Origin: a virus
Lineage: Duplodnaviria > Caudoviricetes
Direction: 5' to 3' (one strand)
IMG/VR virus record: IMGVR_UViG_3300014205_000213
Location: 9,152-73,151 of that record
DNA: 64,000 nt
Below, piece by piece: positions 3,720 through 52,584 of the stretch (positions within the stretch are counted from its first letter, which is position 1; each line of letters opens with the position of its first letter). Under the pieces are notes generated by a model. The model was given only the letters and a program-made list of their open reading frames with translations, was not told where the DNA came from and searched no databases. The translations under genes and the position numbers were made by a program.

Positions 3720-3748
3720 AACAACTTTGATTAAGTTAATAAATATAA

Positions 3749-35195: not shown

Positions 35196-35708
35196 ATGGA
35201 AACAACAAATTTAACACCCGCCGAAGGAAACAAAGTTAACGACGCTGAAAACGCTGGAACCCAGGAACTTAAAAGGACAAAACAAACAATTGCACAAACA
35301 AGTGCCAAAGCCAAAAAGTTACTGGAAAAAAGTAAAGCCAAAGCCGAAGCCGAAAAAGGGAAAGCTCCAGTAAAAGGAGCTCCGAAAGGCAAAGAGGACA
35401 AAAAAGCCCCTAAAAAAGAGGACAAAAAGGCTGACAAAAAAGCCCCTAAAAAACCAGTTATAACACTGGCAAGTAAACTGGACACTATTATAACAGCCGG
35501 TGGCAAGTGGGCGGATTTAATAGAGCAGTGTAACAATGCGTCCAAATCCCTTAAATATTCCACTCGATATAGTGTGGGAGGGATTAAAGCCCATATCAAA
35601 TTCCGTACAGTAACACAGAAAAACCCGCAATACCTTGGTAATAAGGAAGTTACTGCCGATGGAATTGTTATTAAAAGGGCTAAAAAAAGTAACAAAAAAG
35701 CCGCATAA
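35196..35708 (+). CDS. Lys/Ala-rich histone-H1-like protein with conserved C-terminal domain
   Basis: KKAPKK repeats; C-domain aligns by eye with the C-domain of 51595..52584. Confidence 0.7.
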   Translation: METTNLTPAEGNKVNDAENAGTQELKRTKQTIAQTSAKAKKLLEKSKAKAEAEKGKAPVKGAPKGKEDKKAPKKEDKKADKKAPKKPVITLASKLDTIITAGGKWADLIEQCNNASKSLKYSTRYSVGGIKAHIKFRTVTQKNPQYLGNKEVTADGIVIKRAKKSNKKAA

Positions 35709-35731
35709 CCTGGTAAGTTACTCAAAATTAG

Positions 35732-35761
35732 GGAGTTGGTCAAAAGCCAACTCCTTTTTTT
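35732..35761 (+). terminator. Intrinsic terminator (loop TCAAAAG)
   Basis: GGAGTTGG/CCAACTCC 8 bp stem plus T7. Confidence 0.85.
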
Positions 35762-35819
35762 GTGGCTATACTTTATTAATATAGTATGTAAACTAATTAT
35801 TAACTAATATTTTTATAAA

Positions 35820-36002
35820 ATGAAAAAATTCGACGTGGAAACCTGGGTAGTATTAGGATCATTAATAATATGGGTCATTATTTCCTTTTTGTTATTTGCC
35901 TGCATACAATTTGACTGGGAAAAAATGGCTGACATATTATTAATCCCATGGGGCTTTATTTGGATGACTCCCTTTGTGTTTATGGTACGTTCCAAAAAGT
36001 AA
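35820..36002 (+). CDS. Small two-TM membrane protein
   Basis: 60 aa, hydrophobic, flanked by terminators. Confidence 0.65.
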   Translation: MKKFDVETWVVLGSLIIWVIISFLLFACIQFDWEKMADILLIPWGFIWMTPFVFMVRSKK

Positions 36003-36007
36003 AAAGT

Positions 36008-36040
36008 AAACTGGATCATCAAAAGTGGTCCAGTTTTTTT
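36008..36040 (+). terminator. Intrinsic terminator (loop TCAAAAG)
   Basis: CTGGATCA/TGGTCCAG stem with one G-U pair, plus T7. Confidence 0.8.
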
Positions 36041-36105
36041 ATGGACTCCTGTATCGAGGCTGGGCTTAATATGTAACTAAATTATAAACTAAAAAACTTA
36101 TAAAA

Positions 36106-36270
36106 ATGGAAAGAAATTTGTCACGGATGTCTCGAGAGGATTTACTTAATGAGTACCTAAAAAGGTTAGGAACTGAAGTAAATCCTAAATTGCCCATTAG
36201 GCTTTATGAAAAGTCTGTTGAAAGAATGAGGGTAAAATTTTACCTTGAGTTTTTAAAAACCAAACTTTAA
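36106..36270 (+). CDS. Small hypothetical protein (54 aa)
   Basis: Read manually (MERNLSRMSRED...); A-rich leader; below the ORF-track cutoff. Confidence 0.55.
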   Translation: MERNLSRMSREDLLNEYLKRLGTEVNPKLPIRLYEKSVERMRVKFYLEFLKTKL

Positions 36271-36287
36271 ACTAAAAAAGTAATATC

Positions 36288-36494
36288 ATGACTATGATTA
36301 CAAACAAAAAAACTATAAGGTTTGTGGAAGTACAGGCACAGGATATTTCAAGGCTTCTCAAAAACTGTATGGAAGCCCTTGAATTAACTATCAATAAAAA
36401 ACTGTACAAGGACAGTGGTGAAATGGAATATTTAGAAATGGCAATAAAAGGCATGGAAGAGTCCAGGGCTAATTTGAAAACTATTTTTGAATAA
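36288..36494 (+). CDS. Hypothetical early protein
   Basis: 68 aa ORF, A-rich leader. Confidence 0.6.
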   Translation: MTMITNKKTIRFVEVQAQDISRLLKNCMEALELTINKKLYKDSGEMEYLEMAIKGMEESRANLKTIFE

Positions 36495-36504
36495 AAAGGA
36501 ATAT

Positions 36505-36567
36505 GCCAATTGTAAATGGTACCTGCTGAAATAATAGGCAGAGGTGGTTCGATTCCACTTATTGGCT
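36505..36567 (+). ncRNA. Minimal/degenerate tRNA-like element
   Basis: Acceptor GCCAAT/ATTGGC, canonical T-arm GGTGG-TTCGATT-CCACT, reduced D-arm containing TGGTA, irregular anticodon arm. Confidence 0.55.
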
Positions 36568-36613
36568 CAACACTAATTAATTTTATTTATAAACAAACTA
36601 AAAAGCCAAAATT

Positions 36614-36928
36614 ATGGACAAATCTGAAAGGATCAAAACAAGGGATGAGATCAAAAAAGAATTGACAGATCTCATCGAAGGACCATACTTCGGTAAAAAG
36701 AATGATTCCTATTTAACTCCGATTGGTAAAAAAGTTACTTTGACAAAATGGATTAAGGAAGAGGTTATCCTTTCAAAAATCTATACTGAAACCAATAGGA
36801 AACCACACCATGAACGATATTACCTTGGTGACTATATTTCAGTTGTGACGGTTGTCAATCAAAGGCGAACGGTTGAAGTAATGAAAGACATGAGAATGGA
36901 ATTGAATCAAACTACAAATACCAAGTAA
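36614..36928 (+). CDS. Hypothetical early protein
   Basis: 104 aa ORF. Confidence 0.6.
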   Translation: MDKSERIKTRDEIKKELTDLIEGPYFGKKNDSYLTPIGKKVTLTKWIKEEVILSKIYTETNRKPHHERYYLGDYISVVTVVNQRRTVEVMKDMRMELNQTTNTK

Positions 36929-37101
36929 AATGAAAGAAATGTTATTTATTTACCGAGTAGGTGGTGTGGCTGGAGGCAATGTCACCTTAAGGGGAGACCT
37001 CTTCCAAATGACTATATTCAACTACGACGGGAGTGTACTCCGATTGGGCTGGTGTATGAACTGAGCCATTAACAGGCAGGTATCAAGGGCTTATTTGTAT
37101 A

Positions 37102-37122
37102 TTGTATAATTTTTTGTATAAT
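37102..37122 (+). promoter_or_regulatory. Tandem TTGTATAAT putative phage promoter boxes
   Basis: Two intergenic copies (37102, 37114); same 9-mer at 42415, 47809, 51534, 62917. Confidence 0.65.
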
Positions 37123-37234
37123 ATATAAGTAAGTCCTTTTTTTTATGACTTGTAACAAACGAATGAAATGAACGACTTGTTTTTTATGTTTAACCCGGGA
37201 GTGAATAAAAAAGCTCCCACAATACCAATTTATC

Positions 37235-37417
37235 ATGACAAACATCAAAATGGTTCGCAAGGACAATGTTTTGACAATCACCGTTGATCTGTCAAAAAAG
37301 GGAACACCATCCTCAACTGGTAAAAGTTTAGTGATAGCCTCAACCAATGGCAACCAGCCAATCGAAGGAGGAGGGGACATCATGGTTGGTGTCAACGTGT
37401 ACAAAAAAGTGAAATAG
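37235..37417 (+). CDS. Small conserved beta-strand protein
   Basis: LTITVDLSKKG..SSTGKSLVIASTNGN motif; own promoter and terminator. Confidence 0.7.
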   Translation: MTNIKMVRKDNVLTITVDLSKKGTPSSTGKSLVIASTNGNQPIEGGGDIMVGVNVYKKVK

Positions 37418-37437
37418 CACACCCGGCTGAACAGGTT

Positions 37438-37475
37438 AAAAGGACGCTCTTTATATGTAAGGGCGTCCTTTTTTT
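37438..37475 (+). terminator. Intrinsic terminator
   Basis: AAAGGACGCTCTT/AAGGGCGTCCTTT stem plus T-run. Confidence 0.85.
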
Positions 37476-37519
37476 ATGGACGCATGTAACTAATATGAAC
37501 CAAAATAAAACCAAGTAGA

Positions 37520-37747
37520 ATGAAAAAAATCATTTTTGTAACTGAAAAAATGGACGAGGCATGGGTAGATTTACTTTATGCCAATGAGCCTGATCTGAAT
37601 GATCCTTACTTCCCCAAAGAGGTATTATGCATTGACGGGGAAATTGTGACTTTACTAATTACGGTTAATGATGTGCAGTACATTTGTATTTCCAATCCGA
37701 GAGACAGGAATACATGGTACCATGTCATAACAACTCAGGAAGCATGA
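37520..37747 (+). CDS. Hypothetical early protein
   Basis: 75 aa, first gene of a tightly tiled run. Confidence 0.6.
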   Translation: MKKIIFVTEKMDEAWVDLLYANEPDLNDPYFPKEVLCIDGEIVTLLITVNDVQYICISNPRDRNTWYHVITTQEA

Positions 37748-37965
37748 TGAAACGAACAAAGTGGACGACAATGCGACTAAAAAGGAGCTGTCCACCAAAA
37801 AGTAAGACCTACGTGGATGGAAAGGGTACTCTCCACATAGGATTATTAAATAGGTACCTACGTAAGGCTAAAAAACGAGGAGTCATGGGTTTGGAATTCT
37901 ATGACTCTGAAAACGACATCCGAACTATTTTTATTTTCAAACAACCACTAAAAAGAACAAGATGA
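37747..37965 (+). CDS. Hypothetical basic protein (MKRTK...)
   Basis: ATG overlapping the previous stop; ORF track 37684..37965. Confidence 0.6.
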   Translation: MKRTKWTTMRLKRSCPPKSKTYVDGKGTLHIGLLNRYLRKAKKRGVMGLEFYDSENDIRTIFIFKQPLKRTR

Positions 37966-38150
37966 AAACAAGAAAATGGCAGTATGGTCCAACCATAATT
38001 AACTTCACATGTGAAGATTTTGAAGAGAATGGAACCTGGTTAGATACCTTGGTTTACATAAACGGATATGAAGTCTGTGTCATTGCTGGATTTGATATTA
38101 ACAACTTTATCAATGACTACAAAAGTTTGATAACTAAATACAGAATTTGA
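37962..38150 (+). CDS. Hypothetical protein
   Basis: Tiled ORF. Confidence 0.55.
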   Translation: MKTRKWQYGPTIINFTCEDFEENGTWLDTLVYINGYEVCVIAGFDINNFINDYKSLITKYRI

Positions 38151-38151
38151 A

Positions 38152-38373
38152 ATGAGAATGAGAAATGGAACTTATTATTTAAACAATTCTGGCAGTCGCT
38201 GGATTGTTTATGAAAATGGCAAAAAGTCTACTATTACGTTGGAAACTAAGTCACATAATTTTGTTACCAGAACCGTAATTTATTACTTCTCCTTCGGCAA
38301 TTTTGCTGGAGCCCTTATCTCCTATAAAGGAAAAAGAATCAGAGTTTTGAAATCAACTATTTTGGAGGACTAA
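38152..38373 (+). CDS. Hypothetical protein
   Basis: Tiled ORF. Confidence 0.6.
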   Translation: MRMRNGTYYLNNSGSRWIVYENGKKSTITLETKSHNFVTRTVIYYFSFGNFAGALISYKGKRIRVLKSTILED

Positions 38374-38376
38374 AAA

Positions 38377-38607
38377 ATGAAATCAATCACATTAGAAGAA
38401 GCCAAAAAATTGAGTCCAGGAGAGTGGATATACCATCGGACTGAAAGAGACTCCAAAGGTAATCCAAAGAGATGGAAAGTCTCTGGGAAACCTATTGTCT
38501 GGAAAAAGACTCCTGAAAGGGTAGAAGTTCCATTAAAATATGGAATGTACACCAATAGCAGGTTAACAGAAAGAAATCTTTATTACTTTTCACTAACAGA
38601 TTATTAA
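38377..38607 (+). CDS. Hypothetical protein
   Basis: Tiled ORF; RWKVSGKPIVWKKTPERVEVPLKYG. Confidence 0.6.
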   Translation: MKSITLEEAKKLSPGEWIYHRTERDSKGNPKRWKVSGKPIVWKKTPERVEVPLKYGMYTNSRLTERNLYYFSLTDY

Positions 38608-38609
38608 TC

Positions 38610-38819
38610 ATGAAAGTATGGAGAGCTAAAAAGATGGTGAGAAGAGTTCAAAGTTTAATTCACGAACATTCTATATTGAACTCTTTAATAAAAAGTACCG
38701 AAGAATTGGCAAAAAGGCCAAATTACGACATGGATACATCCTATCTCCCAAATTACAGAAGGAGACTGGCAAGTATTGAAAAAACATTTGACGAAATCTT
38801 TAATACACCTGAAAAATGA
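38610..38819 (+). CDS. Hypothetical protein
   Basis: Tiled ORF. Confidence 0.55.
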   Translation: MKVWRAKKMVRRVQSLIHEHSILNSLIKSTEELAKRPNYDMDTSYLPNYRRRLASIEKTFDEIFNTPEK

Positions 38820-39085
38820 AAGTACAAAAAATAGAATTGATAGAAAAGGCTCAAGACCTTATTATGGAAGCGATTGCTTTATTAGAAGTAGCCCTTCAAA
38901 AAGATGAGGATTCAAAAGAGTATCTTTTGAACCAAATCAAAACCTACACATCATCGGACTTCGGCTTTGTATCAGCCAATTTGAATATGGACGAGCTTAT
39001 TTTGAAATATTCAAAGGATAAAGAAAAGATAGATATAGGTGAAGATATTATTGATATACTTTATAATAATAATTCTGATTGTTAA
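38816..39085 (+). CDS. Hypothetical protein
   Basis: Tiled ORF. Confidence 0.55.
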   Translation: MKVQKIELIEKAQDLIMEAIALLEVALQKDEDSKEYLLNQIKTYTSSDFGFVSANLNMDELILKYSKDKEKIDIGEDIIDILYNNNSDC

Positions 39086-39104
39086 ACCAAAAAACCCAAA
39101 AAAG

Positions 39105-39638
39105 ATGAAAAAAATGAATTTAGAAATTGTTGTTAACCCTTCCATTAAGGATGTTATCTTAATTGATGGAGAACCTCTTTTAGGTAAGGTGAATCCTTTC
39201 ACATCAGAAATGGTAGATGAAGTCGAAAAATGGTACAAAGAACTCCTGTTATCTACCATGGAGGAAGGTTTATCTGTTCATGATATTGTTGAAAAGGTTT
39301 TAAAAGAAAGAAAGGAAGATGGAATTGACTTAGCCAGATACATATTCCTTGTCGGTCAAATTCGAAGTCATTGTGATTCTGAACACAACATGTTCATCCT
39401 CTCCATGTTACTTGGTTGTAAGAGGGGAACTCCCACCACAGAAATTCTTTCCCTGCAAAGAAATTTTGCATTATCTTACCTGGCAAAGAAAGACAAACTT
39501 GATCCGTACGTGGAGATAAAAGCCAATATGATGACATTGATCATATATTCCAGCATACTATATTTGATGCAACACAAAGATGAAGCCGAGGCCTGTTCCT
39601 TATTACTTGCTTTACAAGGGTTTACACCCACAAATTAA
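39105..39638 (+). CDS. Hypothetical protein
   Basis: ORF track 39039..39638; ATG 39105 follows the previous stop. Confidence 0.6.
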   Translation: MKKMNLEIVVNPSIKDVILIDGEPLLGKVNPFTSEMVDEVEKWYKELLLSTMEEGLSVHDIVEKVLKERKEDGIDLARYIFLVGQIRSHCDSEHNMFILSMLLGCKRGTPTTEILSLQRNFALSYLAKKDKLDPYVEIKANMMTLIIYSSILYLMQHKDEAEACSLLLALQGFTPTN

Positions 39639-39654
39639 TTATTCTTTGTGAAAA

Positions 39655-39686
39655 TTTGTTGGTAATAAAATTAGTTGTTAACTTTG
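39655..39686 (+). promoter_or_regulatory. Bacteroidota-type housekeeping promoter TTTG-N20-TAACTTTG
   Basis: Matches the -33 TTTG / -7 TAnnTTTG consensus with a 20 nt spacer, 25 bp before ATG 39711. Confidence 0.7.
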
Positions 39687-39710
39687 TTTTTTATAAAATT
39701 GTAAAACACT

Positions 39711-39905
39711 ATGAAAGAAAAAATTAGCCTTAATGAATTGAAAGAATTCTTCCGTGAACATTACGGATACATAGACATGGAATTGACAGACAAAGAACTG
39801 CTCGAGTTCTTACATGAAGCGAATAAGAAAGGGTATTCCCTACCAAGGACGGCAGATATGTTATCAGACCTTTTACTTGCCAGCGGGGCATTCGCTCAGG
39901 AATAA
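39711..39905 (+). CDS. Hypothetical protein
   Basis: 64 aa after promoter. Confidence 0.6.
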   Translation: MKEKISLNELKEFFREHYGYIDMELTDKELLEFLHEANKKGYSLPRTADMLSDLLLASGAFAQE

Positions 39906-40150
39906 TGAAAACTTTATCAGGCAAAAAGATTAGTGAATGTTACCTGTTCTACGAAAATATAATTGTGGTAGATAAATCAGGTAAGCAGTATTTTCTAAAA
40001 AAGGAACATCTCATGGACATAGTTACAAAAGCCATGAAGGAGGTAACCTTTGAAGTAACAAAAAAGAGGACGCGAACATGGTTAGTACCAAACATTAAAC
40101 CAAGAAAACCAAAACATGGTGGAAAAAAGAGCAGTGATAGCACTAAATGA
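39905..40150 (+). CDS. Hypothetical protein
   Basis: Tiled ORF. Confidence 0.55.
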   Translation: MKTLSGKKISECYLFYENIIVVDKSGKQYFLKKEHLMDIVTKAMKEVTFEVTKKRTRTWLVPNIKPRKPKHGGKKSSDSTK

Positions 40151-41747
40151 AAACAAGGATCGGGTCATTAAAATTATATTTTCCAATGATGATCTTGATT
40201 CCTTACACAAGGTACGGTCCCTTCCAGGTAGGAAGTTTCATTCTAAACATAACTGTTGGAGCACCCCTGTTCGAGACGATGTAATTCATTCATTAAAGAA
40301 TTGGGGTTTTCTTTTAGACCAAATATTGGAAAAAAAGATAGCAAAGACAGATTATTCGGAAAAGATAAAAAATCTCTCCATACCTGGGTTAAAGAAAGAA
40401 CTTCGTTTATTCCAAAAGGCTGGTGTACATTTTATTGAAAGACACAATGGTAGAATTCTACTTGCCGACGAAATGGGATTAGGTAAAACCATACAAACAT
40501 TAGCTTGGTTACAATTACGAAAAGAAGTCAGACCAGCCATAATTGTAACACCAGCCTCTTTAAAATTGAATTGGGCAAAAGAAGCTATTGATTGGATGAA
40601 AAATCCACAGGTAGAAATCCTAACTGGACAAACACCTTGGACTCCCAGCGGTAAGATATTAATCATTAATTATGATATTCTTTCCTACTGGGTTCGTGCT
40701 TTAATGAAAATTAATGCCATGGTATTGATCACGGATGAATGTTATTATTATCAAAACACAACTGCCCAACGAACAAAACAATTGAAACTGCTTGCAAAAG
40801 GTATTCCCAAGTTTATTGCAATATCTGGTAATCCAATTGAGAATCGTCCAATTGAGATTTACAATGCCTGGAAATTAACCGATCCAGAAGGTTGTCCAGA
40901 GTATTGGGATTTTACAGGAAGATATTGTAAGAGACATAGAAATGGTTTTGGTTGGGATATGAGTGGAGCTTCCCACACCGAGGAATTGCATCAAAGATTA
41001 GTGGATACAATTATGCTCAGACGTAAAAAGGATGAAGTACTTACAGATCTCCCCGCTAAGACGCGATCATTTATTCCTATACAGTTATACAATGAGGCTG
41101 TTTATCAACGAGCAGAGGAGGACTTTCTCACCTATATCAGGGAAACAAAAGGGAGGGAGGCTGAGGAGAGGGCTTCGAGGGCTGAATCCTTTGCCAAAGT
41201 TGAGGTATTAAAACAGCTGGCTGTGGAAGGTAAAATGACTGAGGCTATAGAATGGATTGATAACTTTTTAAAGTCTGGCAGAAAGTTAGTTGTATTTGCT
41301 GTTCACAAATCTGTAATAAAAACTTTAATGACAAAATTTGGTGACATTGCTGTTAAGGTGGACGGAAGTTGTAATGCTCCAAAAAAGGAAGAGGCAAAAG
41401 TTCAATTCCAAACAAATCCAAACATTCGTTTATTTGTAGGGAATATTAATGCGGCCAGAATGGGGCTTACATTAACTGCTGCACATGATTTAGTATTTCT
41501 TGAACTTCCTTGGACTCCTGGTGCCTTAGGGCAGGCGGAAGACAGAGTACATAGGATCACACAAACAAAAGGAGTAGTCATTTATTTCCTACTCGCACTT
41601 GGAACCATAGAGGAAAAGATAGCCAAGTTACTGGACAAAAAACGAAAGGTTCTGGATGCCATTCTTGATGGTGTTGAAACAACGCAAGATGATTTATTAT
41701 CAGAGTTAATTTCGGAATATAAACAATTAAAACCAAGAAAGAAATGA
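40116..41747 (+). CDS. SNF2-family helicase/annealing ATPase (HARP/SMARCAL1-like)
   Basis: LADEMGLGKT, DEC(Y), SGNPIEN, QAEDRVHRI; N-terminal HARP-like LPGRKF...WS. Confidence 0.9.
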   Translation: MVEKRAVIALNENKDRVIKIIFSNDDLDSLHKVRSLPGRKFHSKHNCWSTPVRDDVIHSLKNWGFLLDQILEKKIAKTDYSEKIKNLSIPGLKKELRLFQKAGVHFIERHNGRILLADEMGLGKTIQTLAWLQLRKEVRPAIIVTPASLKLNWAKEAIDWMKNPQVEILTGQTPWTPSGKILIINYDILSYWVRALMKINAMVLITDECYYYQNTTAQRTKQLKLLAKGIPKFIAISGNPIENRPIEIYNAWKLTDPEGCPEYWDFTGRYCKRHRNGFGWDMSGASHTEELHQRLVDTIMLRRKKDEVLTDLPAKTRSFIPIQLYNEAVYQRAEEDFLTYIRETKGREAEERASRAESFAKVEVLKQLAVEGKMTEAIEWIDNFLKSGRKLVVFAVHKSVIKTLMTKFGDIAVKVDGSCNAPKKEEAKVQFQTNPNIRLFVGNINAARMGLTLTAAHDLVFLELPWTPGALGQAEDRVHRITQTKGVVIYFLLALGTIEEKIAKLLDKKRKVLDAILDGVETTQDDLLSELISEYKQLKPRKK

Positions 41748-41977
41748 AAAAAGGATTCAAACTTTGGTTCTTAAACGTGCTTTGGAGGATGCAGTTTAAG
41801 AAGGGGGTATTCAATGGAAAGAAAGGATATCATTGTACAGAATGTGTCTGTGGAAATTACTTCTCCTGTAATGACTTCCATTGCCCTGTTGAAGAAGAAC
41901 CATATGGCAAAATGGTTTGGAAATTTAAAAACGATTGGTTAATCAAAAAACTTAATAAATGGAGAACATCAATTTAA
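41744..41977 (+). CDS. Small Cys-rich protein
   Basis: CTECVCGNYFSCNDFHC. Confidence 0.5.
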   Translation: MKKGFKLWFLNVLWRMQFKKGVFNGKKGYHCTECVCGNYFSCNDFHCPVEEEPYGKMVWKFKNDWLIKKLNKWRTSI

Positions 41978-42405
41978 TTAGAAAAGTTGCGTGGTCATTT
42001 CATTATACAACAGGATTAGATTGGGATGATCTCTTTCAAGAAGCTGCATATGCATACTTGGAAGGAATAAAATCACATAATCCTAAGAAAGGAACAATAT
42101 CCACCCACATGTGGGTATGTATGTCTAACCATTTAAGAAACTACATCAAGGAGCAGGAATATTATAACTGTACTTCACCCTTTGAAGAGGGGTACGATTT
42201 TCCCACTGACTCTAATGACTTCTTTGATAGATTAACCGAAGATGCTCAGACAGTTGCACGAATGGTTTTATCCTCATCAAAGAAATTTGTAGTTTTAGAT
42301 AAAGAAGAGGCTGAGGATCGATTGGTGCGTATATTAGCCAAACAGAGATGGCCAGCAGAACGTATATGTCAAGCAATACTAAATTTAGAACAAGCATTTG
42401 AATAA
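41959..42405 (+). CDS. Sigma-70 region 2 protein (phage sigma factor)
   Basis: DWDDLFQEAAYAYLEGIKSHNPKKGTISTHMWVCMSNHLRNYIK. Confidence 0.75.
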   Translation: MENINLIRKVAWSFHYTTGLDWDDLFQEAAYAYLEGIKSHNPKKGTISTHMWVCMSNHLRNYIKEQEYYNCTSPFEEGYDFPTDSNDFFDRLTEDAQTVARMVLSSSKKFVVLDKEEAEDRLVRILAKQRWPAERICQAILNLEQAFE

Positions 42406-42414
42406 ATAAACGAA

Positions 42415-42423
42415 TTGTATAAT
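42415..42423 (+). promoter_or_regulatory. TTGTATAAT putative phage promoter
   Basis: Intergenic copy right after the sigma gene. Confidence 0.6.
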
Positions 42424-42442
42424 AAATTAAAAATTTAAAATT

Positions 42443-42697
42443 ATGGCACGAATGAACAATGAACTTTTTCATTTCCTCACATCGAGGAATATTTTTAAAG
42501 GCTATTCTCCAACCGAAGTTGCTTCCCAGGCAACTGAAAACAGGAGGAAAGAACGTCAAAGAGGAACCCTTGTATGGTTGTCCAAAGGATGGAGGACACT
42601 TCCTGAAACTGGACTCAAACGTGTAATAGGAAAAGGAACCTATATCAGAAGTCTTCATGGCAGATTAAAACATGACAGAAATATTTATAACGAATAG
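42443..42697 (+). CDS. Hypothetical basic protein
   Basis: 84 aa after promoter motif. Confidence 0.6.
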   Translation: MARMNNELFHFLTSRNIFKGYSPTEVASQATENRRKERQRGTLVWLSKGWRTLPETGLKRVIGKGTYIRSLHGRLKHDRNIYNE

Positions 42698-42699
42698 TC

Positions 42700-42954
42700 A
42701 TGGCAATATTTGATTCTGTCTTCGGTAGATTTGAGAGGGGAGGTTGGGTTATTGGTGGTTATGTTCCTTCCTCTACTGATGAAATAAAAGATCTGATTGA
42801 TAAGGAAATTCGTAATGCCACAAGAAAACAGGTATTGAATTGGAATAAGACATTCAGAATTGATAAAGTCAAAGGTGACTTAACCACCTATCAAAAGATG
42901 AAAGTATTCACATTTTTACATAACCTTGATAATGCAAAAATAATTGAATTATGA
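42700..42954 (+). CDS. Hypothetical protein
   Basis: Tiled ORF. Confidence 0.55.
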   Translation: MAIFDSVFGRFERGGWVIGGYVPSSTDEIKDLIDKEIRNATRKQVLNWNKTFRIDKVKGDLTTYQKMKVFTFLHNLDNAKIIEL

Positions 42955-43151
42955 GCAGTAAAGAACAATTCAGAGATGCTCTTCATAGAGCGAATGATGC
43001 CGTTCATAGATTGTCTACAGAAAAAGATAAATTGGAAAAGGAGAACGGTTCCTTAAGAATACAAAATGAAAATTTATCTCAATCTAACAGAGATCTCAGA
43101 AAAGAACTTTCCAAGTTCTACGACAGAAAATGGTGGCAATTTTGGAAATAA
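42951..43151 (+). CDS. Small coiled-coil protein ending KWWQFWK
   Basis: Heptad pattern with a C-terminal amphipathic WWQFWK tail. Confidence 0.6.
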   Translation: MSSKEQFRDALHRANDAVHRLSTEKDKLEKENGSLRIQNENLSQSNRDLRKELSKFYDRKWWQFWK

Positions 43152-43158
43152 AAACTAT

Positions 43159-44766: not shown

Positions 44767-44920
44767 TTAGAACAAAACAACCAATTAAAGTAACCTTGGA
44801 GACAGGGGAAGTTAAAATATTAAATATTTCTAACTCTTTATCAGATAAAGAAATTATATGGTTACTTCATTTGGTATACGGAGCACAAAGTTGGTTAGAA
44901 TATAAAATAAAAAAAGCAGT

Positions 44921-45280
44921 ATGAAAAGAACTAAATTTCCTATTCGAGGTCGGTTTACTTTCAAAAACTATGAACGTACAGGAAGGTTTAGATCATTTGA
45001 TCCAAAAGGATGCCATATTAAATTGAGAGGAGAGATTGTTGGTTTTATTCAAGAAAGAAAATCATACGGTTTGCAACCAAATGAAGTACTTTTGGACAGA
45101 TTCTCCATATCTTTTAGGCTTAATAAAGAAGACATTATGGAAGATGGAAATTTTAATTGTGTTTGGAAGAACGCTACCTTGGCAAAAAAGGCAGATAGTT
45201 TGAAAGATGCAAAAGAATTTATACTAAAATTTAATGATGAAATTCAAAAGAAGTTCAATATTTATTTAAAAACAGATTAA
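44921..45280 (+). CDS. Hypothetical protein (MKRTK...)
   Basis: 119 aa ORF. Confidence 0.6.
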   Translation: MKRTKFPIRGRFTFKNYERTGRFRSFDPKGCHIKLRGEIVGFIQERKSYGLQPNEVLLDRFSISFRLNKEDIMEDGNFNCVWKNATLAKKADSLKDAKEFILKFNDEIQKKFNIYLKTD

Positions 45281-45284
45281 AACC

Positions 45285-45707
45285 ATGAAAATGAACAAAA
45301 TTGATTTAATTAAGGCAGGTGCCGAGTTGAATTATGTACTCGGTTTAGAGAAACCTAATACAGGCGAACCAGGGGTAGACATCTATTCTTCCTCTGAAGA
45401 ACAATTAAAGGAGGATATCCTCTTTGCTTCGCATCTGATATGCGATGCAGACACCTTTACTCCAGAGACCTGTTTTGTACTGGATGCGCTAAAGACTGAA
45501 AAAGAGAGAAAAGAAGGATTTAAAAGAAAAAACCCTCCTTCAGCCACTCTCACTCCAGCCAAGAACACAGCAATAAAGGAAGTGCTACGTCAGGCTGCAA
45601 ATTGGCAGGAACTTATGACTAAGGCAGAAGCAAAAGATATTACATATGGTAATGCCAGAGAACGTGTAATTGAACGAATATTCAAATCACTTGTAGGAAA
45701 ACTATAA
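45285..45707 (+). CDS. Protein sharing the N-terminal ELN..LGL domain with acidic protein 51595..52584
   Basis: LIKAGAELNYVLGL...DTFTPETCFVLDAL aligns with [14 protein letters not shown]...[14 protein letters not shown]. Confidence 0.65.
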   Translation: MKMNKIDLIKAGAELNYVLGLEKPNTGEPGVDIYSSSEEQLKEDILFASHLICDADTFTPETCFVLDALKTEKERKEGFKRKNPPSATLTPAKNTAIKEVLRQAANWQELMTKAEAKDITYGNARERVIERIFKSLVGKL

Positions 45708-45711
45708 AACC

Positions 45712-46029
45712 ATGAAAAGGACAAAATTCTCAAAACCGTTTGTGATTACTGATGTTGAAGGAGTTCCTATCATCAGGCAACCAGCGCCCGGTACTATTGT
45801 TACACATACAGGATGGCATCCAGGACCAGGAATCCTAAAAGGATATCCTTGCGATGTTTATATTGTTGATGGTCATTATCAAGTAAACGGCAGGCTCTCA
45901 AATTACTTCCATTGGAGAAGAGTTTTAAAAGACTCAAAAGGTCATATTACCTTAGGTAAGACAGTATCCGGATACGGATCATTTCATGAATGTAAAACGA
46001 AATATAATATTAAAGTTCAGGTAAAATAA
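45712..46029 (+). CDS. Hypothetical protein (MKRTK...)
   Basis: 105 aa ORF; GRLSNYFHWRRV. Confidence 0.6.
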   Translation: MKRTKFSKPFVITDVEGVPIIRQPAPGTIVTHTGWHPGPGILKGYPCDVYIVDGHYQVNGRLSNYFHWRRVLKDSKGHITLGKTVSGYGSFHECKTKYNIKVQVK

Positions 46030-46185
46030 AACAGTAAAGATGAAAACTAAAATTAAAAATAATAAACAAGGTGAATGCGGATTTTTTTGTTTTAAATATT
46101 GGATTGGATCAGGCTGTGATAATTGCTTAGATCACCATGTAAAAAGAAATAACGCAACCCGCAAAAACAAGTAAAAAGTAAGATT

Positions 46186-46359
46186 ATGCAAGAATATTAC
46201 AATGTCAGAAGATTAGCCTTAGTATTAGCTATTCAGGCTGAAATAGATGGAATGAAAGTTAAAAACTTAACTGATCCTGGAACTTATAATGAACAACAAT
46301 TCATGGATAAAGCAGAAGAATTAAGATCAATGGCATATTGCCACGATGAACAACTTTAA
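46186..46359 (+). CDS. Small hypothetical protein (57 aa)
   Basis: Read manually (MQEYYNVRRLALVLAIQAEIDGMK...). Confidence 0.5.
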   Translation: MQEYYNVRRLALVLAIQAEIDGMKVKNLTDPGTYNEQQFMDKAEELRSMAYCHDEQL

Positions 46360-46388
46360 CCCCGCCTAAAGATAAAAAACTATGGAAA
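46356..46388 (+). repeat. Dispersed repeat A, copy 2
   Basis: Matches 303-334. Confidence 0.9.
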
Positions 46389-46585
46389 GAGAATTAACAT
46401 CAGAAGAAAAAATAGTTAGAGAAGTATCTGAAAAGAATAATCCGTATGCTCCTGAATGCCCTAATAAGCATTTATGGAGTGAAGGTTTTAGATGTGGATA
46501 TAAATATGCCATTGGGGTATGTGATTTTGCAGACGCCGTATTTAAAAAGCCAGTAGAGATACCTGAGATAAGCGATGAAAAATGA
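46382..46585 (+). CDS. Hypothetical protein ending KPVEIPEISDEK
   Basis: 67 aa; bounded by repeats A and B. Confidence 0.55.
   Translation: MERELTSEEKIVREVSEKNNPYAPECPNKHLWSEGFRCGYKYAIGVCDFADAVFKKPVEIPEISDEK
46546..46576 (+). repeat. Dispersed repeat B, copy 2
   Basis: Matches 486-516 with one mismatch. Confidence 0.9.
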
Positions 46586-46774
46586 AAACGACAACAGAAC
46601 AGTATCTAATTTAGCAATACAGGGAGTTGGTTAGCTGGCTGGATACAGAATGCCCGAAAGTTGTTCCTCCATTAGAACCATATGCAACATCAGACCTAAG
46701 TCATAATTTTGCTGAATTATTACGCATAAGGCTTGACGAAATTGATTTGATAAGAACGAAATTAATAAAACAAA

Positions 46775-47059
46775 ATGAAAAAACTATTTCTAATCTTCGC
46801 AGCAGTAATCCTCCTATCCTGTGAGATAATTGAGGATCCTATTAAACCAGTAAACTATTATTGCATAGTCTTACAGGTGAACTCTACCAACGGCAAAGTC
46901 ATATCAAATGAGGTTATCTCAGACTTTGTTTATGAAAAAGAATCCATTGATAAATGGAGTAGAGATGAAGGAATGATTACTCTAACCGATTCCATCAACC
47001 ACATTACCACTATCAAAATAATAACACATTTATACCCAGATTCGAAAGGAGGTAAATAA
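46775..47059 (+). CDS. Lipoprotein
   Basis: MKKLFLIFAAVILLS-C lipobox. Confidence 0.65.
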   Translation: MKKLFLIFAAVILLSCEIIEDPIKPVNYYCIVLQVNSTNGKVISNEVISDFVYEKESIDKWSRDEGMITLTDSINHITTIKIITHLYPDSKGGK

Positions 47060-47060
47060 A

Positions 47061-47249
47061 ATGGTAACAGAAATTGAATTAGCAAAGTTGGTTAAAAAAC
47101 TCAACGGTAAGGTTAATGTCCTAAAAAGACAACAAAGGAACTTCAATGCCACAAAGGCAAATCCTGGAGCATGGTTATATCTGGAAGGGCAAATAAAAAC
47201 CATGGATACAACAATTGATAGTTTGCTTAAAATTCTAAAGGTAAACTGA
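47061..47249 (+). CDS. Hypothetical protein
   Basis: 62 aa tiled ORF. Confidence 0.55.
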   Translation: MVTEIELAKLVKKLNGKVNVLKRQQRNFNATKANPGAWLYLEGQIKTMDTTIDSLLKILKVN

Positions 47250-47448
47250 AATGAATAAAATAAAACATTCTTGGGAAAGGCTATTTGGCACAGGAAAGAT
47301 GAACCATGCTGAATGTAGGAAATGTAAATTACAAAAATGGTATGACTCCGTTATGGAAAAGACTGTTTACCTAACCCAGAATGGAGTAACCCTTTATTGG
47401 GCACCTGAATGTATTCCTAATTAATAAACCAATTTAATAAATAAGACT

Positions 47449-47748
47449 ATGAAACTACAAGCAAACATCATCATCACAATCCTTTTCTGTTTAGCCATTT
47501 TTATTTGGGTGGGTTCCCATTTATGGAAAGCCTATAAGGAAGGAAGGAAGCCCACACCCGACGATGAACTTTATCAACTCCGATGGAAAATCGAATGTTG
47601 TGAAGTGAATGATCTTAATGAAATTTATCTTATTCAAGCCATTAAAGAAATGAGATCCAGAAAAGATCTTAACCAAAAGAAAGTTGATGTATTAGACAGA
47701 TTAAGGAGAGAAAGATTTCAGGAATTACATACAAATGACAAGGAGTAA
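47449..47748 (+). CDS. Membrane-anchored hypothetical protein
   Basis: N-terminal TM helix. Confidence 0.55.
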   Translation: MKLQANIIITILFCLAIFIWVGSHLWKAYKEGRKPTPDDELYQLRWKIECCEVNDLNEIYLIQAIKEMRSRKDLNQKKVDVLDRLRRERFQELHTNDKE

Positions 47749-47808
47749 AACCAGGCATACTGTTATAACTATTTGAATCTAAGTTGATTCATTCGTTTTA
47801 AAAAGAAA

Positions 47809-47817
47809 TTGTATAAT
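47809..47817 (+). promoter_or_regulatory. TTGTATAAT putative phage promoter
   Basis: Intergenic, upstream of initiator-dnaB-que genes. Confidence 0.6.
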
Positions 47818-47942
47818 ATAATAGTTAATTATTTTCATATAGGCGGATATGAACAAAAATATAATTCATTTTTCTTGGGTGTTCAGTCAGAAGGAGTCAG
47901 GTGCCGCCTCACTTGCCCTTCTGGCTTTTTATTTTAAAAAAG

Positions 47943-48809
47943 ATGAAGAGAAATATATCAAATAGGTTAAACATATACGCCTATCCTATTCAAGAAGAAC
48001 CAATTATCCTTTCAAAATATTTACTTGATATTTTATTAAAGGAACCCAACCCAGCAGACTTAATTGGTTTGTACTGTTTCTATTATTATACATCCAAGTG
48101 GCAGGGAACAAACTTTCCAAAAGCCACGACTACTTACTCTGCGAAAGGGATGAACTGGGGGGTAGACAAAACCAGATCAGTCAAAAAGAGATTAAAAGAA
48201 TTAGGACTCATAGAGGACGTCACACGACGTGGATTAGGAGGGGAAGTGACAGGGCACTTTGTCAAAATCAACTTTGTGTGGAGTTTAAATCACATCGGTG
48301 AATTCCCCAGCCCCATGAAAAACCCAGGCCTGGGGAAAACCGCGGTAAATACTTTAATAACTAATAATAAAAATACTTTCTTTGAAGATGAGGATTTTTC
48401 CAATAAAGAAAAAGATGATTCCTCCAATTCAATCAATTCAAGTGTTCCAATTGTTCCATCTCAATTCTCCATGTTTTGGAATTTATATCCCAAGCACAAA
48501 GATCAAGGCAAAGCAATGACAGCCTGGGATAAGATTTGTAATCGACCCACTTCAAAAAGACCAACGTGGAGGCAAATCAAAAAGGCAATCGTAGCACAAA
48601 AGAAAACAGAACGGTGGGAAGACCCTCAATACATTCCATTCCCAGCAACTTGGTTAAATCAAAGTCGTTGGTTAGATGATCCTGACGAAATGACAACATT
48701 TAAAAGTTATAAGGATAAACCAAACAAAATTATGGAGGGAGGGGAATGGTGGTATCTTGATAAGAAAGATGGAAAATATTATAATAACGAAGGAATATTA
48801 CTATCATGA
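47943..48809 (+). CDS. Replication initiator / replisome organiser
   Basis: N-terminal wHTH (SVKKRLKELGLIE); C-terminal FSMFWNLYPK...AW and ATWLNQSRWLD. Confidence 0.75.
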   Translation: MKRNISNRLNIYAYPIQEEPIILSKYLLDILLKEPNPADLIGLYCFYYYTSKWQGTNFPKATTTYSAKGMNWGVDKTRSVKKRLKELGLIEDVTRRGLGGEVTGHFVKINFVWSLNHIGEFPSPMKNPGLGKTAVNTLITNNKNTFFEDEDFSNKEKDDSSNSINSSVPIVPSQFSMFWNLYPKHKDQGKAMTAWDKICNRPTSKRPTWRQIKKAIVAQKKTERWEDPQYIPFPATWLNQSRWLDDPDEMTTFKSYKDKPNKIMEGGEWWYLDKKDGKYYNNEGILLS

Positions 48810-50347
48810 TAGAACGTAAGATTATAATAGGGTTGATTGTATCAACAGAGTATTTACAACAAATTCAAAATATTTGGGATCCCCAGTATATTGTTTCATC
48901 AACGGCAAAACGATTGGCTGTCTGGTGTTGGGAATATTTCAATAAATACAATAAGGCTCCTGGTAAACATATTGAAGATATTCTTTATACGAAGATAAGA
49001 AAAGGTAAGTTAGCCAAAGACATTGCCGAGGAGTTTGAAGAGGATATTCTTCCAAGTCTAAGTAAAGAATATACAAACAAGTCATTCAATTTAACCTATT
49101 TGTTAGAAGAGACAAAGAATTACTTTGATGAACGCCATTTAATTATTCATAAGGACACCATACAAAATTTACTTGCGGCAGGCAATATACAAGAGGCGGA
49201 ACAGTTAGCCTGTGAGTTCAAGCCCATTTCCGGGGCTGTGCGTGAGGATTTAGACCTTAGTAGTCCAATAGTATTAGATCGTATAGATCGTGCCTTTGCG
49301 ACGACGTCTTCACCTCTTGTATATTATCCTCACCAATTAGGAGAGTTTTGGAATTCTCAACTCACACGTGGGGCGTTTGTTGCCTTAATGGGACCAGAGA
49401 AAAGAGGAAAGACATTTTGGTTACTTGACATAGCTTTACGTGGTTGTAGGCAAGGAAGGAATGTTGCCTTTTTCCAAGCAGGGGATATGTCTGAGGATGA
49501 ACAATTGATACGTATTTGCATTTATTTAACAAAAAAGTCCAATGAGGCTGTCTACTCTGGAAAGATGGAAGAGCCTGTTCGAGATTGCATTAATAATCAG
49601 TTAAATGATTGTACCAAAGATGAAAGAGAATGTAATTGTGGTGCATTTGAAGGGTGGGACTTTAAAAGATTACGAAACGATTTAACATTGAAAGACTTAC
49701 AGGATGCATATACTGAGCATCCTGATTACAAACCATGTACAAATTGTAAGCAGTATTGGAAGAATCATTGGGGATCTGTTTGGATGAAACCTGTTAATAC
49801 TGGTGGGCCTCTGACAGCAATACAAGCCAAGAGAGCAATAAATAAATTCTTCCTACAAAATGGAAGGAACTTTAAATTGTCAACACACGCTAATGGTACA
49901 TTGTCTAATAAAGAAATACGGGCTATATTGGCAAATTGGGAAAAGCAGGATAACTTCGTTCCAGATATTATTGTTATTGACTATGCAGATTTGTTAATTG
50001 GAGACTCAAAAGACTTTAGACACTTACAAAACGAAATATGGAAAGGGTTACGACGTTTGTCACAAGAGAAAGGGGAGCCCTTGGTTGTTACAGCAACACA
50101 GGCAGATGCTGCAAGTTATGATCAAAATAGATTAAAATTGAAAAACTTCTCCGAAGATAAAAGAAAGTATGGACATGTGACCGCTCTATGGGGATTAAAC
50201 CAAGATCCTTTAGATAGAGAAAAGAAACTTGGATTAATGAGGATTAATGAATTAGTGGTTAGGAAGGGAGCATTTTCAGTTCTTAACGAGGTTACTGTTT
50301 TACAAAACTTAAGGAGAGGGCGTCCATTCCTTGGAAGTTATAGGTAG
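48806..50347 (+). CDS. DnaB-like replicative helicase
   Basis: GPEKRGKT Walker A, IVIDYADL, VTATQ. Confidence 0.88.
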   Translation: MIERKIIIGLIVSTEYLQQIQNIWDPQYIVSSTAKRLAVWCWEYFNKYNKAPGKHIEDILYTKIRKGKLAKDIAEEFEEDILPSLSKEYTNKSFNLTYLLEETKNYFDERHLIIHKDTIQNLLAAGNIQEAEQLACEFKPISGAVREDLDLSSPIVLDRIDRAFATTSSPLVYYPHQLGEFWNSQLTRGAFVALMGPEKRGKTFWLLDIALRGCRQGRNVAFFQAGDMSEDEQLIRICIYLTKKSNEAVYSGKMEEPVRDCINNQLNDCTKDERECNCGAFEGWDFKRLRNDLTLKDLQDAYTEHPDYKPCTNCKQYWKNHWGSVWMKPVNTGGPLTAIQAKRAINKFFLQNGRNFKLSTHANGTLSNKEIRAILANWEKQDNFVPDIIVIDYADLLIGDSKDFRHLQNEIWKGLRRLSQEKGEPLVVTATQADAASYDQNRLKLKNFSEDKRKYGHVTALWGLNQDPLDREKKLGLMRINELVVRKGAFSVLNEVTVLQNLRRGRPFLGSYR

Positions 50348-50378
50348 TTTTATGTCAAATAAATTAAATTAAAAAGTT

Positions 50379-50744
50379 ATGTACACGATTAGAAAAGAGT
50401 TTCATTTTAGCGCCGCCCACCGTTTGGTTGGGCTTCCTCCTGAGCATCCATGTGGGAATGTTCATGGTCACAATTACAAAGTGACGTTGGAGTTAGTCTC
50501 CATTAAATTGAATACAAATGGTTTTGTTGTTGATTACCGACAACTCCAACCTGTTAAAGAATGGATTGATGAACATCTTGATCACAAACTTCTTAACGAT
50601 TGTATGGTAAACACTCCAACAGCAGAGAATATTGCCAAGATGCTCTTTATGCAATTTAAACCTCGCTTCCCCCAACTAACTGCCGTTGAAGTAAGTGAAA
50701 CTGAAAAAACAACAGCACGTTATATGTCTGACTATGACGAATAA
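50379..50744 (+). CDS. queD: 6-carboxy-5,6,7,8-tetrahydropterin synthase
   Basis: FSAAHRL, CGNVHGHNY, LDHKLLN, PTAENIA, EVSET. Confidence 0.92.
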   Translation: MYTIRKEFHFSAAHRLVGLPPEHPCGNVHGHNYKVTLELVSIKLNTNGFVVDYRQLQPVKEWIDEHLDHKLLNDCMVNTPTAENIAKMLFMQFKPRFPQLTAVEVSETEKTTARYMSDYDE

Positions 50745-50745
50745 T

Positions 50746-51513
50746 ATGGTTAAGCAAATAATTCGAGCGGAAGATTCCCAAACAAGGAAGTCCTTTCAAA
50801 AAGATGGAGAGTATTTCTTAAGGGTATCTGAATTCTATTATGACACAATTCAAGGTGAAGGATTTCACATAGGACATCCTGCAGCATTTCTTAGATTGCA
50901 AGGATGTTCCTTAAATTGTGGTTATTGTGATACTACCTCCGTATGGAAATATGGGAGTCCTTATTCGTATGGTGAATTAATTGAATTGATAAATAGTACA
51001 ATGTTAATTCCAAGATTAAAGGAAGGTCAACATTTGGTGATAACTGGAGGGAGTCCTTTGTTGCAACAAAATAAACTGGAGGGATTCATACGACAACTTT
51101 CAATTGTGTATGGATTTAATCCTTACGTTGAAGTTGAAAACGAATGTGTTATTGAACCATCCGAAGGGATGATAAATATTGTTAATTGTTGGAACAATTC
51201 TCCAAAATTAACAAACAGTGGTGTCCTTGCCAAGGATAGATATAAACCAAATGTTATTACTATCATGTCAAGTTTACCAAATTCCTGGTTTAAGTTTGTT
51301 ATATCCCATACGGAGGAGTGGAAAGAGATAGAAGAATTTTATTTGAAAACACAGTTGATTCGCAAAGAGCAAATTATTTTAATGCCTGAAGGAGGGACCA
51401 AAGAGGAGTTGGAAAAAAATAAATTGGAGGTTGTAGAATTAGCGGTAAGGCACAATGTTAGGTACAGTTCACGGGAGCACATCATGCTCTGGGACAAAAA
51501 AGTTGGGATTTAA
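50746..51513 (+). CDS. queE: 7-carboxy-7-deazaguanine synthase (radical SAM)
   Basis: TIQGEG, FLRLQGCSLNCGYCDT, ITGGSPLLQ, SPKL. Confidence 0.9.
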   Translation: MVKQIIRAEDSQTRKSFQKDGEYFLRVSEFYYDTIQGEGFHIGHPAAFLRLQGCSLNCGYCDTTSVWKYGSPYSYGELIELINSTMLIPRLKEGQHLVITGGSPLLQQNKLEGFIRQLSIVYGFNPYVEVENECVIEPSEGMINIVNCWNNSPKLTNSGVLAKDRYKPNVITIMSSLPNSWFKFVISHTEEWKEIEEFYLKTQLIRKEQIILMPEGGTKEELEKNKLEVVELAVRHNVRYSSREHIMLWDKKVGI

Positions 51514-51533
51514 AAAATGAATTAAAATTTTTT

Positions 51534-51542
51534 TTGTATAAT
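51534..51542 (+). promoter_or_regulatory. TTGTATAAT putative phage promoter
   Basis: Intergenic, upstream of the acidic protein and folE operon. Confidence 0.6.
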
Positions 51543-51594
51543 ATGCGTAAATAAGTTTTCTAATTTTTATTGTTTAATTTAAATTTTTGAAATT

Positions 51595-52584
51595 ATGATT
51601 AGTGAAAAAGGATTGCGGTCAGCCGCAAAGGAATTGAACGAGTTACTTGGCTTGGATCCCGCCATTAACTTAAAGGCAAGTATTTCTGTACTTACCGAGA
51701 AGGTCAAAGAGGCAACATCTCTTATTGATCCCAAGGAGGACAAGTTTACAAAAGACACCCAGGCAGTCATTGACGAGTTAACAGGTAAGAAAGGGAAGAA
51801 GGCAAAGGCCAAAGTTGAAGAGGAAGAAGATGAGGACGAGGAAGTTGAGGAAGTAAAACCGAAAGGAAAGAAAGGAAAGAAAGCTCCGGAACCCGAACCT
51901 GAGGATGAAGACGAGGATGAAGACGAGGATGAGGACGAGGATGAGGACGAGGATGAGGACGAGGATGAGGACGAGGATGAGGACGAGGATGAGGATGAGG
52001 ACGAGGACGATGAGGACGAGGATGATGAGGACGAGGATGATGACGAGGATGAAGACCTCCGTGGCCAGGTTGATGAAGCTGAAGACCTTGACGACCTGAA
52101 AGAAATTGTTAAGGGTGCAGCAGAATTCAAACCCCTGGTAAAACAACTGAAGACCTTCAAGAAGGTAAAGGAACTCCGGAAGGCTATGATAGCCATACTG
52201 GATGAAGCAGATGAAGAAGCCCAGGAAAAGGCTGAGAAGATCAGCAAAAAGAACATAGGTTCCAAAAAGGTAAACGAGCTCAAAAAGAAATCGGCAAAGG
52301 AAGAGGACGAGGATGACAAAAAGAAGTCCAAAAAAGGTGGCCCGAAGAAAGGAGTAAAACCCAACTTCAAGAGGGAAGGATCAATGGCAGAATTTATGGA
52401 TAACATCTGCAAGGCCGGTGGGTCCTGGGACGAACTGGCAGAGGCTTGTAAGGAGGAAGGTGAGAAAAGGGATGTCCGCACCAAGTTTACTCCAAGTGTA
52501 ATGAAAGCCCATGTTAAGTTCCGGGTAAGCAAAGACCCAAAATTCCTTGGGAAATTGAAAATGAGAGAGGATGGGATCAGGTAA
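51595..52584 (+). CDS. Highly acidic multi-domain protein with (ED)n tract
   Basis: About 50-residue D/E run; N-domain shared with 45285, C-domain shared with 35196. Confidence 0.85.
51901..52050 (+). repeat. Tandem GAGGAT/GAGGAC/GAAGAC repeat encoding poly-ED
   Basis: Visible 6/12 bp tandem repeat. Confidence 0.95.

Follow-up and report, generated by a model that had tools for sequence, protein, structure and literature searches.

A winged-helix domain on a basic and an acidic phage protein: a possible DNA-binding pair

Why should one phage carry the same small domain on a strongly basic protein and on a strongly acidic one? The question is raised by a 64,000-nucleotide stretch of viral DNA (Caudoviricetes), referred to here as the window, which comprises bases 9152-73151 of the 73,151-bp IMG/VR record IMGVR_UViG_3300014205_000213 (G000), rated complete by CheckV. 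Genes starting at 35196, 45285 and 51595 encode proteins named here P0001, P0002 and P0003; a first-pass annotation, made by eye, had grouped them as a three-protein family with a basic H1-like form, a poly-acidic form and a form consisting of the N-domain only. The current work suggests, with a probability of about 40%, that P0001 and P0003 are a DNA-binding pair in which the same winged-helix head is mounted on oppositely charged bodies, P0003 being the anionic counterpart.

Domains shared by the three proteins

All three open reading frames (ORFs) are present on the + strand where they had been placed. The C-domain common to P0001 and P0003 was recovered by BLASTP at E=5e-14 (residues 90-157 of P0001 against residues 263-328 of P0003, 35% identity, 68 residues). 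The Smith-Waterman score of this pair is 124, while shuffled sequences give 23.8 +/- 4.3 (z=23.4) and 0/2000 shuffles reach the observed value. Hidden Markov models (HMMs) were built from eight P0003 orthologues, P0003 included, and searched against the 336 ORFs of the window; the C-domain model detects P0001 at E=1e-13 to 3e-13, with the runner-up ORF at E=2. The N-domain common to P0002 and P0003 is weak in pairwise comparison and clear by profile: residues 8-69 of P0002 align with residues 7-62 of P0003 at a BLASTP E of 7e-4 (z=8.4, with 0/2000 shuffles as high), and the N-domain model reaches P0002 at E=3e-9, the runner-up standing at 0.15. Mismatched domains, used as controls, yield z values from -1.2 to 0.4. 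Shuffled controls had been named beforehand as a possible refutation of the alignments made by eye; both alignments remain significant against them.

The basic form, P0001 (35196..35708, +), has 170 amino acids (aa), an isoelectric point (pI) of 10.05 and a net charge of +23, and was identified by BLASTP and HMM together with its orthologues L013/L023, L024 and L029. Its composition bears out the earlier description of a C-domain on a Lys/Ala-rich tail. A Lys/Ala/Pro-rich N-terminal tail (residues 1-90, net +12; 35196..35465, +), part of which is encoded by a 24-nt repeat with 2.2 copies at 35391-35442, precedes the C-domain (residues 91-157; 35466..35666, +; placed by HMM and alignments), and a short basic tail follows it.

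The acidic form, P0003 (51595..52584, +), has 329 aa, a pI of 4.47 and a net charge of -46. Its N-domain (residues 1-68; 51595..51798, +) is predicted from HMM and AF2 to contain three helices (4-18, 30-41 and 53-63; pLDDT 81-89). The long Asp/Glu (D/E) tract through which P0003 was said to join both domains is a run of 52 consecutive D/E residues (103-154; 51901..52056, +) encoded by 13 copies of the 12-nt unit GAGGATGAGGAC and modelled as disordered, with pLDDT below 50. An optional middle helical domain (residues 155-219; 52057..52251, +; pLDDT 75-90) is found in some orthologues only, and in proteins with a different C-terminal domain, called type 2 below. The protein ends in a conserved basic arm and the C-domain, which belongs to the sequence type called type 1 (residues 255-329; 52357..52581, +; AF2). 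Orthologues of P0003 (P0004-P0011; L004-L008, L026-L028, L041) retain the N-domain, the basic arm and the head, and their acidic region ranges from a few dozen to more than 100 residues. The loci L004 and L005, otherwise identical, differ by a 45-nt (15-residue) insertion or deletion within the Glu tract, which indicates, at the level of sequence comparison, that the tract undergoes rapid slippage. A disordered model, encoding by repeats and variable length together fit a charge-carrying spacer.

Antisense ORFs of 187 aa (35180-35743, -) and 341 aa (51579-52604, -) span the two low-complexity genes; these arise from the repetitive codons of the genes and do not count as genes themselves.

For P0002 (45285..45707, +; 140 aa), the label N-domain-only is inexact, because the N-domain (residues 4-74; 45294-45506) is followed by a C-terminal region of about 50 residues (50 aa in P0002; 45549-45704) that is conserved in two orthologues. 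This half was also considered as a degenerate C-domain, which the comparison does not support (hhalign probability 3.8%, shuffle z=0.4). The gene is part of a group of small ORFs flanked by the primase and replication initiator genes. Its only close relatives are two, both on short contigs, and no counterpart was found in the related genome G001, which is 82% complete, in any further related record covered by the search, or in the primase-initiator interval of L041. It is a lineage-specific addition, so the proposed three-protein family does not hold as a conserved set.

A winged-helix family with two charge classes

The C-domain was modelled by AF2 from 27 family sequences with a pLDDT of 91.3 and the topology H1-b-H2-H3-b-b (helix 6-16, strand 18-19, helices 20-33 and 42-55, strands 65-66 and 69-70). 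This is the topology of a winged helix, for which a check had been proposed, and the structural matches are of the same kind. Almost all matches in Foldseek and exhaustive VIA searches are winged-helix domains (VIA Z 5-6.9), among them cullin/APC2 WHB, UFL1/DDRGK1, Orc1/Cdc6 on origin DNA, E2F-DP, MecI, PadR, Fur, SelB and Stn1. Many of the top matches are DNA-bound, such as Orc1/Cdc6, E2F-DP, MecI and Fur. The best Foldseek E is only 0.18, a match strength that is generic, and a Foldseek search of BFVD with the C-domain gave nothing below E=0.3. The ESM Atlas model of P0001 has winged-helix neighbours across residues 68-164; the matches of P0001 in the Atlas were all viral hypothetical proteins, and P0002 had no usable match there. 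When the full-length P0003 model was used for structure search, the matches were taken up by the C-domain.

The first-pass annotation recognised no named family, and P0001, P0002 and P0003 are indeed unmatched in Pfam and PHROGs. Pfam hmmscan of P0001 and P0003 at E<=1 gave 0 families, and no PHROG matched the three proteins at E<=0.01, including PHROG 4765, 11298 and 21588. The 27 C-domain members have no Pfam match and only two stray weak matches in PHROGs, and PDB sequence profiles gave the C-domain chance-level matches only. The comparison with H1 does not extend to sequence: the linker histone H1/H5 profile PF00538 finds neither P0001 nor P0003 at E<=1, nor any of the 27 members. A HARE-HTH domain, which had been suggested for checking, was not found either. 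PF05066 matched none of the six frames of the whole 73-kb record at E<=10 while its controls matched, the family is absent from the matches of the 27 members (E<=1), and the lead in the Atlas consists only of a feature score of 0.77. With a predicted winged-helix fold and no sequence relative in Pfam, PHROG or PDB, the C-domain is, as far as the model goes, a new sequence family within the winged-helix class, distinct from both H1/H5 and HARE-HTH.

A profile search of 1.84 billion cluster representatives returned 181 family clusters, defined at 50% identity, at E<=1e-3, of which 89 reach E<=1e-10. Class counts, consensus and tree are based on 162 domains. The largest class (59/162) joins the N-domain and an acidic linker to the C-domain and is net negative; the next (46/162) carries the C-domain on a basic tail, in proteins of 100-215 aa with a net charge of +10 to +23. 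The C-domain stands alone in 24/162, and the other contexts (33/162) are tandem doublets, fusions to nuclease domains and proteins with Rho_N motifs. Thus the switch between basic and acidic charge noted in the window is a pattern across the whole family and not peculiar to one phage. The head itself is basic in both main classes, with mean net charges of +3.8 and +4.5. In the metagenomic proteins P0053 and P0085, a NucS_C/restriction-endonuclease-like nuclease domain is fused to the type-1 winged helix, and in P0062 and P0146 the latter is combined with Rho_N-like motifs. These fusions of the head point to nucleic-acid targeting, as far as can be judged from domain composition.

The type-1 signature extends over about 70 residues (A..D..GGtWe..kaHikyR..lg..t.gi) and is matched by both P0001 and P0003. 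Its H and R fall in predicted helix 3, and helix 3 is the usual recognition helix of winged helices. In a FastTree phylogeny of the domain, built on an alignment of 75 columns, the classes are only partly split, with clades that hold 28/46 basic (support 0.62) and 43/59 acidic (support 0.75) members.

The N-domain has a distribution of its own. Profile search with it detected many longer proteins in which the N-domain and an acidic linker are followed by other small C-terminal domains, of at least six sequence types, several of them resembling helix-turn-helix domains by eye. That these types are remote homologues of type 1 is not supported (hhalign probability 50% or less). Judged by sequence, the constant unit is therefore the N-domain with its acidic linker, to which different C-terminal domains can be attached. 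The N-domain has a slightly acidic character; its relatives have no match in Pfam or PHROGs and only chance-level matches among PDB sequence profiles.

Two genomic positions

The window has a GC content of about 36%. Structural genes (terminase, portal, capsid, tail) run leftward from about 32.7 kb. The rightward arm begins at 35.2 kb and encodes an SNF2 helicase, a sigma-like protein, primase, replication initiator and DnaB-like helicase; then queD, a QueE-like radical SAM gene, folE, SDR, a second radical SAM gene and queC; and, further, clamp, UDG-exonuclease, PolA and clamp loader. The small protein at 41959-42405 matches sigma-70 region 2 (Pfam E=1e-5, PHROG 351) and also adjoins the SNF2 helicase in related phages; it is a candidate phage sigma-like factor. 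No Shine-Dalgarno sequence was seen upstream of 35196, 45285 or 51595 (3/3). Such absence is typical of Bacteroidota rather than Firmicutes, and suggests a host of Bacteroidota type. By megablast, the window region resembles nothing among GenBank phages. P0001, P0003 and the family member P0069 were unmatched by tblastn against GenBank phages (50,697 records for P0003 and P0001); scans of genome contigs and of metagenome contigs gave no matches, nor did viral-contig scans queried with P0001, P0177 and P0017.

As the first-pass annotation held, 35196 opens the rightward arm: the preceding stretch of about 2.5 kb has no credible ORF, and the first credible gene to follow on the + strand is 35196. 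This non-coding stretch (32671..35195) separates the basic gene from the terminase genes, which run leftward, and its ORFs have implausible low-complexity or hydrophobic translations. It contains five copies of a 26-nt repeat (repeat family D1) at 33816-34496, with the core ATT(G/T)ACAGTG, and several other short repeats; exact ATTKACAGTG copies are confined to the stretch. Rfam gave no match on 32671-35195, which may serve as an origin, as a packaging site or as an array of promoters. A terminator-like hairpin with an 11-bp stem and a T-run (35730..35756, +) begins 22 nt past the stop of P0001, and 35196 is a single-gene unit. In L024 (G006) the order is the same: large and small terminase subunits in leftward orientation, a gap of about 2.3 kb (1656-4001), the basic winged-helix gene and a GC hairpin with T-run, followed by homologues of 36614, 37235 and the SNF2 helicase. 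L023/L013 (G001) retains the basic gene, the hairpin with T-run and the downstream order, and upstream has about 1.2 kb without long ORFs before the contig ends. L029 (G010) retains the basic gene and the downstream gene order. This conserved layout of gap, gene and terminator suggests strong, separate expression.

The acidic gene lies within a different neighbourhood. Directly 5' of it are queD (PTPS) and the QueE-like radical SAM gene (50379..51513, +; synteny in 9 loci), and its stop overlaps by 14 nt the start of folE, the GTP cyclohydrolase I gene (52571..53140, +; E=1e-69). An acidic gene with a type-1 head is located between queE and folE, overlapping the next gene, in 9/9 loci, including a member of 30% identity; such gene-context counts come from the loci read, a minority of the 181 C-domain clusters and all from one syntenic phage group. 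In the 7-deazaguanine cluster of the window, queD, the QueE-like gene, folE and queC were confirmed. No dpdA/TGT match was obtained in the cluster, and its ORF 57119-58147 has no Pfam match at E<=0.001.

The related fragment G005 shows another arrangement. Its gene for an N-domain and acidic protein follows directly after a DnaB-like helicase and ends in the type-2 domain; no queD, queE or folE was detected within the 28 kb available. On the 3' side (L014 5881-9733) are three unknown proteins and an aldo/keto reductase, a cassette that may be an alternative DNA-modification island. Its counterpart in the window is folE-SDR-rSAM-queC (rSAM, radical SAM), and in L014 a Hint/intein-like fragment follows the cassette at 10273-10821. 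At the other position, where the first rightward gene is expected, the last ORF before the contig end (L040 ~26959-28014, minus strand) encodes a Lys/Glu/Ala-rich protein of about 350 aa with internal repeats (PIVRTRK...), a SAP/Rho_N-like C-terminal motif LDELIAELKRRG and no type-1 winged helix. G005 thereby lends no support to the notion that the acidic protein and its basic paralogue have a common head in every case.

The co-occurrence of the forms had also been proposed as a check. The basic and acidic forms occur together in G000 and G001, the sole records covering both positions, and P0002 is not a consistent companion. The remaining related records are fragments that span one position only. 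G007 (93% complete) has the acidic form only, and its contig breaks in the non-coding stretch just upstream of the expected site of the basic gene.

What the two proteins may do

Similar combinations of charge are known from other systems, none of which is a sequence relative of P0001 or P0003. Acidic tracts act on cationic DNA binders in the case of prothymosin-alpha with H1 (PMC10576128), and prothymosin-alpha and NPM1 are acidic chaperones of linker histone H1/H5 (PMC10576128, PMC12139302). Like H1/H5 (PF00538), P0001 joins a small winged-helix domain to a long disordered tail rich in Lys, Ala and Pro, and the engineered H1-type globular domain 1yqa is among the weak Foldseek matches of its C-domain; by analogy with H1 and its acidic chaperones, the poly-acidic tract of P0003 could bind the tail of P0001 electrostatically. 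The long tail of P0001, however, is N-terminal (1-90), with 13 residues after the domain, whereas the tail of H1 is C-terminal. Unlike the H1 chaperones, P0003 carries the same winged helix and an additional N-domain, and there is no nucleosome context. The delta subunit of RNA polymerase, RpoE, combines HARE-HTH with an acidic tail that competes with nucleic acid (PMC7749165). P0003 similarly attaches a winged-helix-type domain to a long poly-acidic disordered region, but in reversed domain order and without a PF05066 match.

On the preferred reading, P0001 would have a promoter-gene-terminator unit to itself, right where the rightward arm begins. Strongly cationic and probably abundant, it would coat or condense DNA with little sequence preference, in a design resembling a linker histone, except that the Lys/Ala/Pro tail is N-terminal. 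P0003 would be co-transcribed with the replication and 7-deazaguanine genes. Its head and basic arm would be tethered through the disordered, slippage-prone poly-Asp/Glu tract to the three-helix N-domain. The N-domain is non-basic and would most probably serve in contacts between proteins, recruiting partners or oligomerising. Both heads keep the same conserved helix-3 motif and are therefore expected to seek the same DNA target. At shared sites, the acidic tract could neutralise or displace P0001 or other cationic DNA binders; alternatively, it may auto-inhibit the head of P0003 itself. From these features we infer that both proteins bind DNA, that P0001 is abundant and binds without sequence specificity, and that P0003 acts as its antagonist or chaperone; the last idea is plausible.

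Several observations weigh against such a pair. The co-occurrence of the two forms rests on two related genomes. The structural matches are of generic strength (Z below 7), and winged helices may bind protein or RNA. The module of N-domain and acidic linker is also borne by proteins with other C-terminal domains, and in the G005 record nothing further resembles the type-2 domain of the acidic protein. Given the arrangement in G005 and the portability of the module, a shared head is not required for the role of the two positions, and the conserved feature may be a cationic first gene rather than a shared head. Moreover, the constant placement between queE and folE could indicate a role in DNA modification or replication, not in countering P0001.

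The last point leads to the proposal that the protein of N-domain, acidic tract and winged helix is an accessory of replication or DNA modification. Its N-domain would dock on a DnaB-like helicase, an initiator or a deazaguanine-inserting enzyme, the head would keep it bound to DNA, and the type of head may be suited to DNA as modified by the phage itself. The gene follows helicase-queD-queE in 9/9 type-1 loci, including that of a member with 30% identity, and overlaps folE in each; P0002 is encoded between primase and replication initiator; and in G005, where the gene directly follows the helicase, a type-2 head goes together with the absence of queD, queE and folE from the 28 kb available and with a different cassette after the gene. 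All loci, however, come from one syntenic phage group, so the gene order may reflect inheritance alone. A basic paralogue with the same head is also encoded 16 kb away as a separate unit, and no dpdA/TGT match was obtained. On balance, we consider the accessory role unlikely.

The acidic protein may also be compared with Gp44 of the Bacillus phage SPO1, which has a DNA-binding element and a flexible acidic DNA-mimic region (PMC8208478). P0003 likewise pairs a DNA-binding-type element with a flexible acidic region, and it might be a host-takeover or anti-defence protein, with P0001 functionally unrelated apart from the head. The winged helix would anchor P0003 on DNA, and the tract of 52 consecutive D/E residues would mimic nucleic acid and trap host RNA polymerase, nucleoid proteins or restriction/defence nucleases. 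Its gene is placed inside a DNA-modification cluster, itself an anti-restriction device, which would suit such a function. There are differences, however. P0003 and P0001 have no sequence similarity to any GenBank phage protein in the 50,697 records, among which SPO1 is assumed to be included; the strictly conserved N-domain, the optional middle domain and the C-terminal winged helix are not features of Gp44; the acidic tract is highly variable in length; and the gene is positioned in the replication module, not in an immediate-early region. The odds are thus against a Gp44-like protein.

A bolder form of the pair reading envisages a charge-switched 'chromatin', in which a cationic protein and its anionic paralogue would read one DNA feature through the shared winged helix, possibly phage DNA modified with 7-deazaguanine. 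The acidic form would place its basic counterpart on DNA, remove it or keep it off, with self DNA distinguished from host DNA. Modified DNA is suggested as the feature because the acidic gene is in the preQ0 operon in 9/9 loci and the relative without those genes has a different head. This scheme is decidedly improbable as it stands.

That P0001 and P0003 are ordinary sequence-specific regulators of the early-to-middle switch, with incidental charged regions, is least credible and very unlikely. In its favour, winged helices are typical of regulators, a non-coding region with repeats immediately precedes P0001, and the phage encodes its own sigma-like protein at 41959. Against it, the helix-3 signature is near-invariant over 162 divergent domains, which sets them apart from families whose operators are diverse; net charges of +23 and -46 with long low-complexity tails are unusual for regulators; and no repeat motif common to the regions upstream of 35196 and 51595 was found.

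Outside a few model phages, little is known of the proteins with which phages organise, coat or mask DNA. The current work adds a winged-helix family (about 180 clusters at 50% identity) that is unannotated and has no Pfam or PHROG entry, a recurrent division of this family into two architectures, one strongly basic and one strongly acidic, which can be encoded together in a single genome, and a portable module of N-domain and poly-acidic linker combined with different small C-terminal domains. Should the pair reading prove false, a clean new domain family would still be available for annotation. From its constant placement in a 7-deazaguanine operon, the acidic form is a candidate handler of hypermodified DNA. 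Were the two forms to act on one another, or both on the same DNA, they would represent a simple prokaryotic-virus counterpart of the relation between linker histones and their acidic chaperones.

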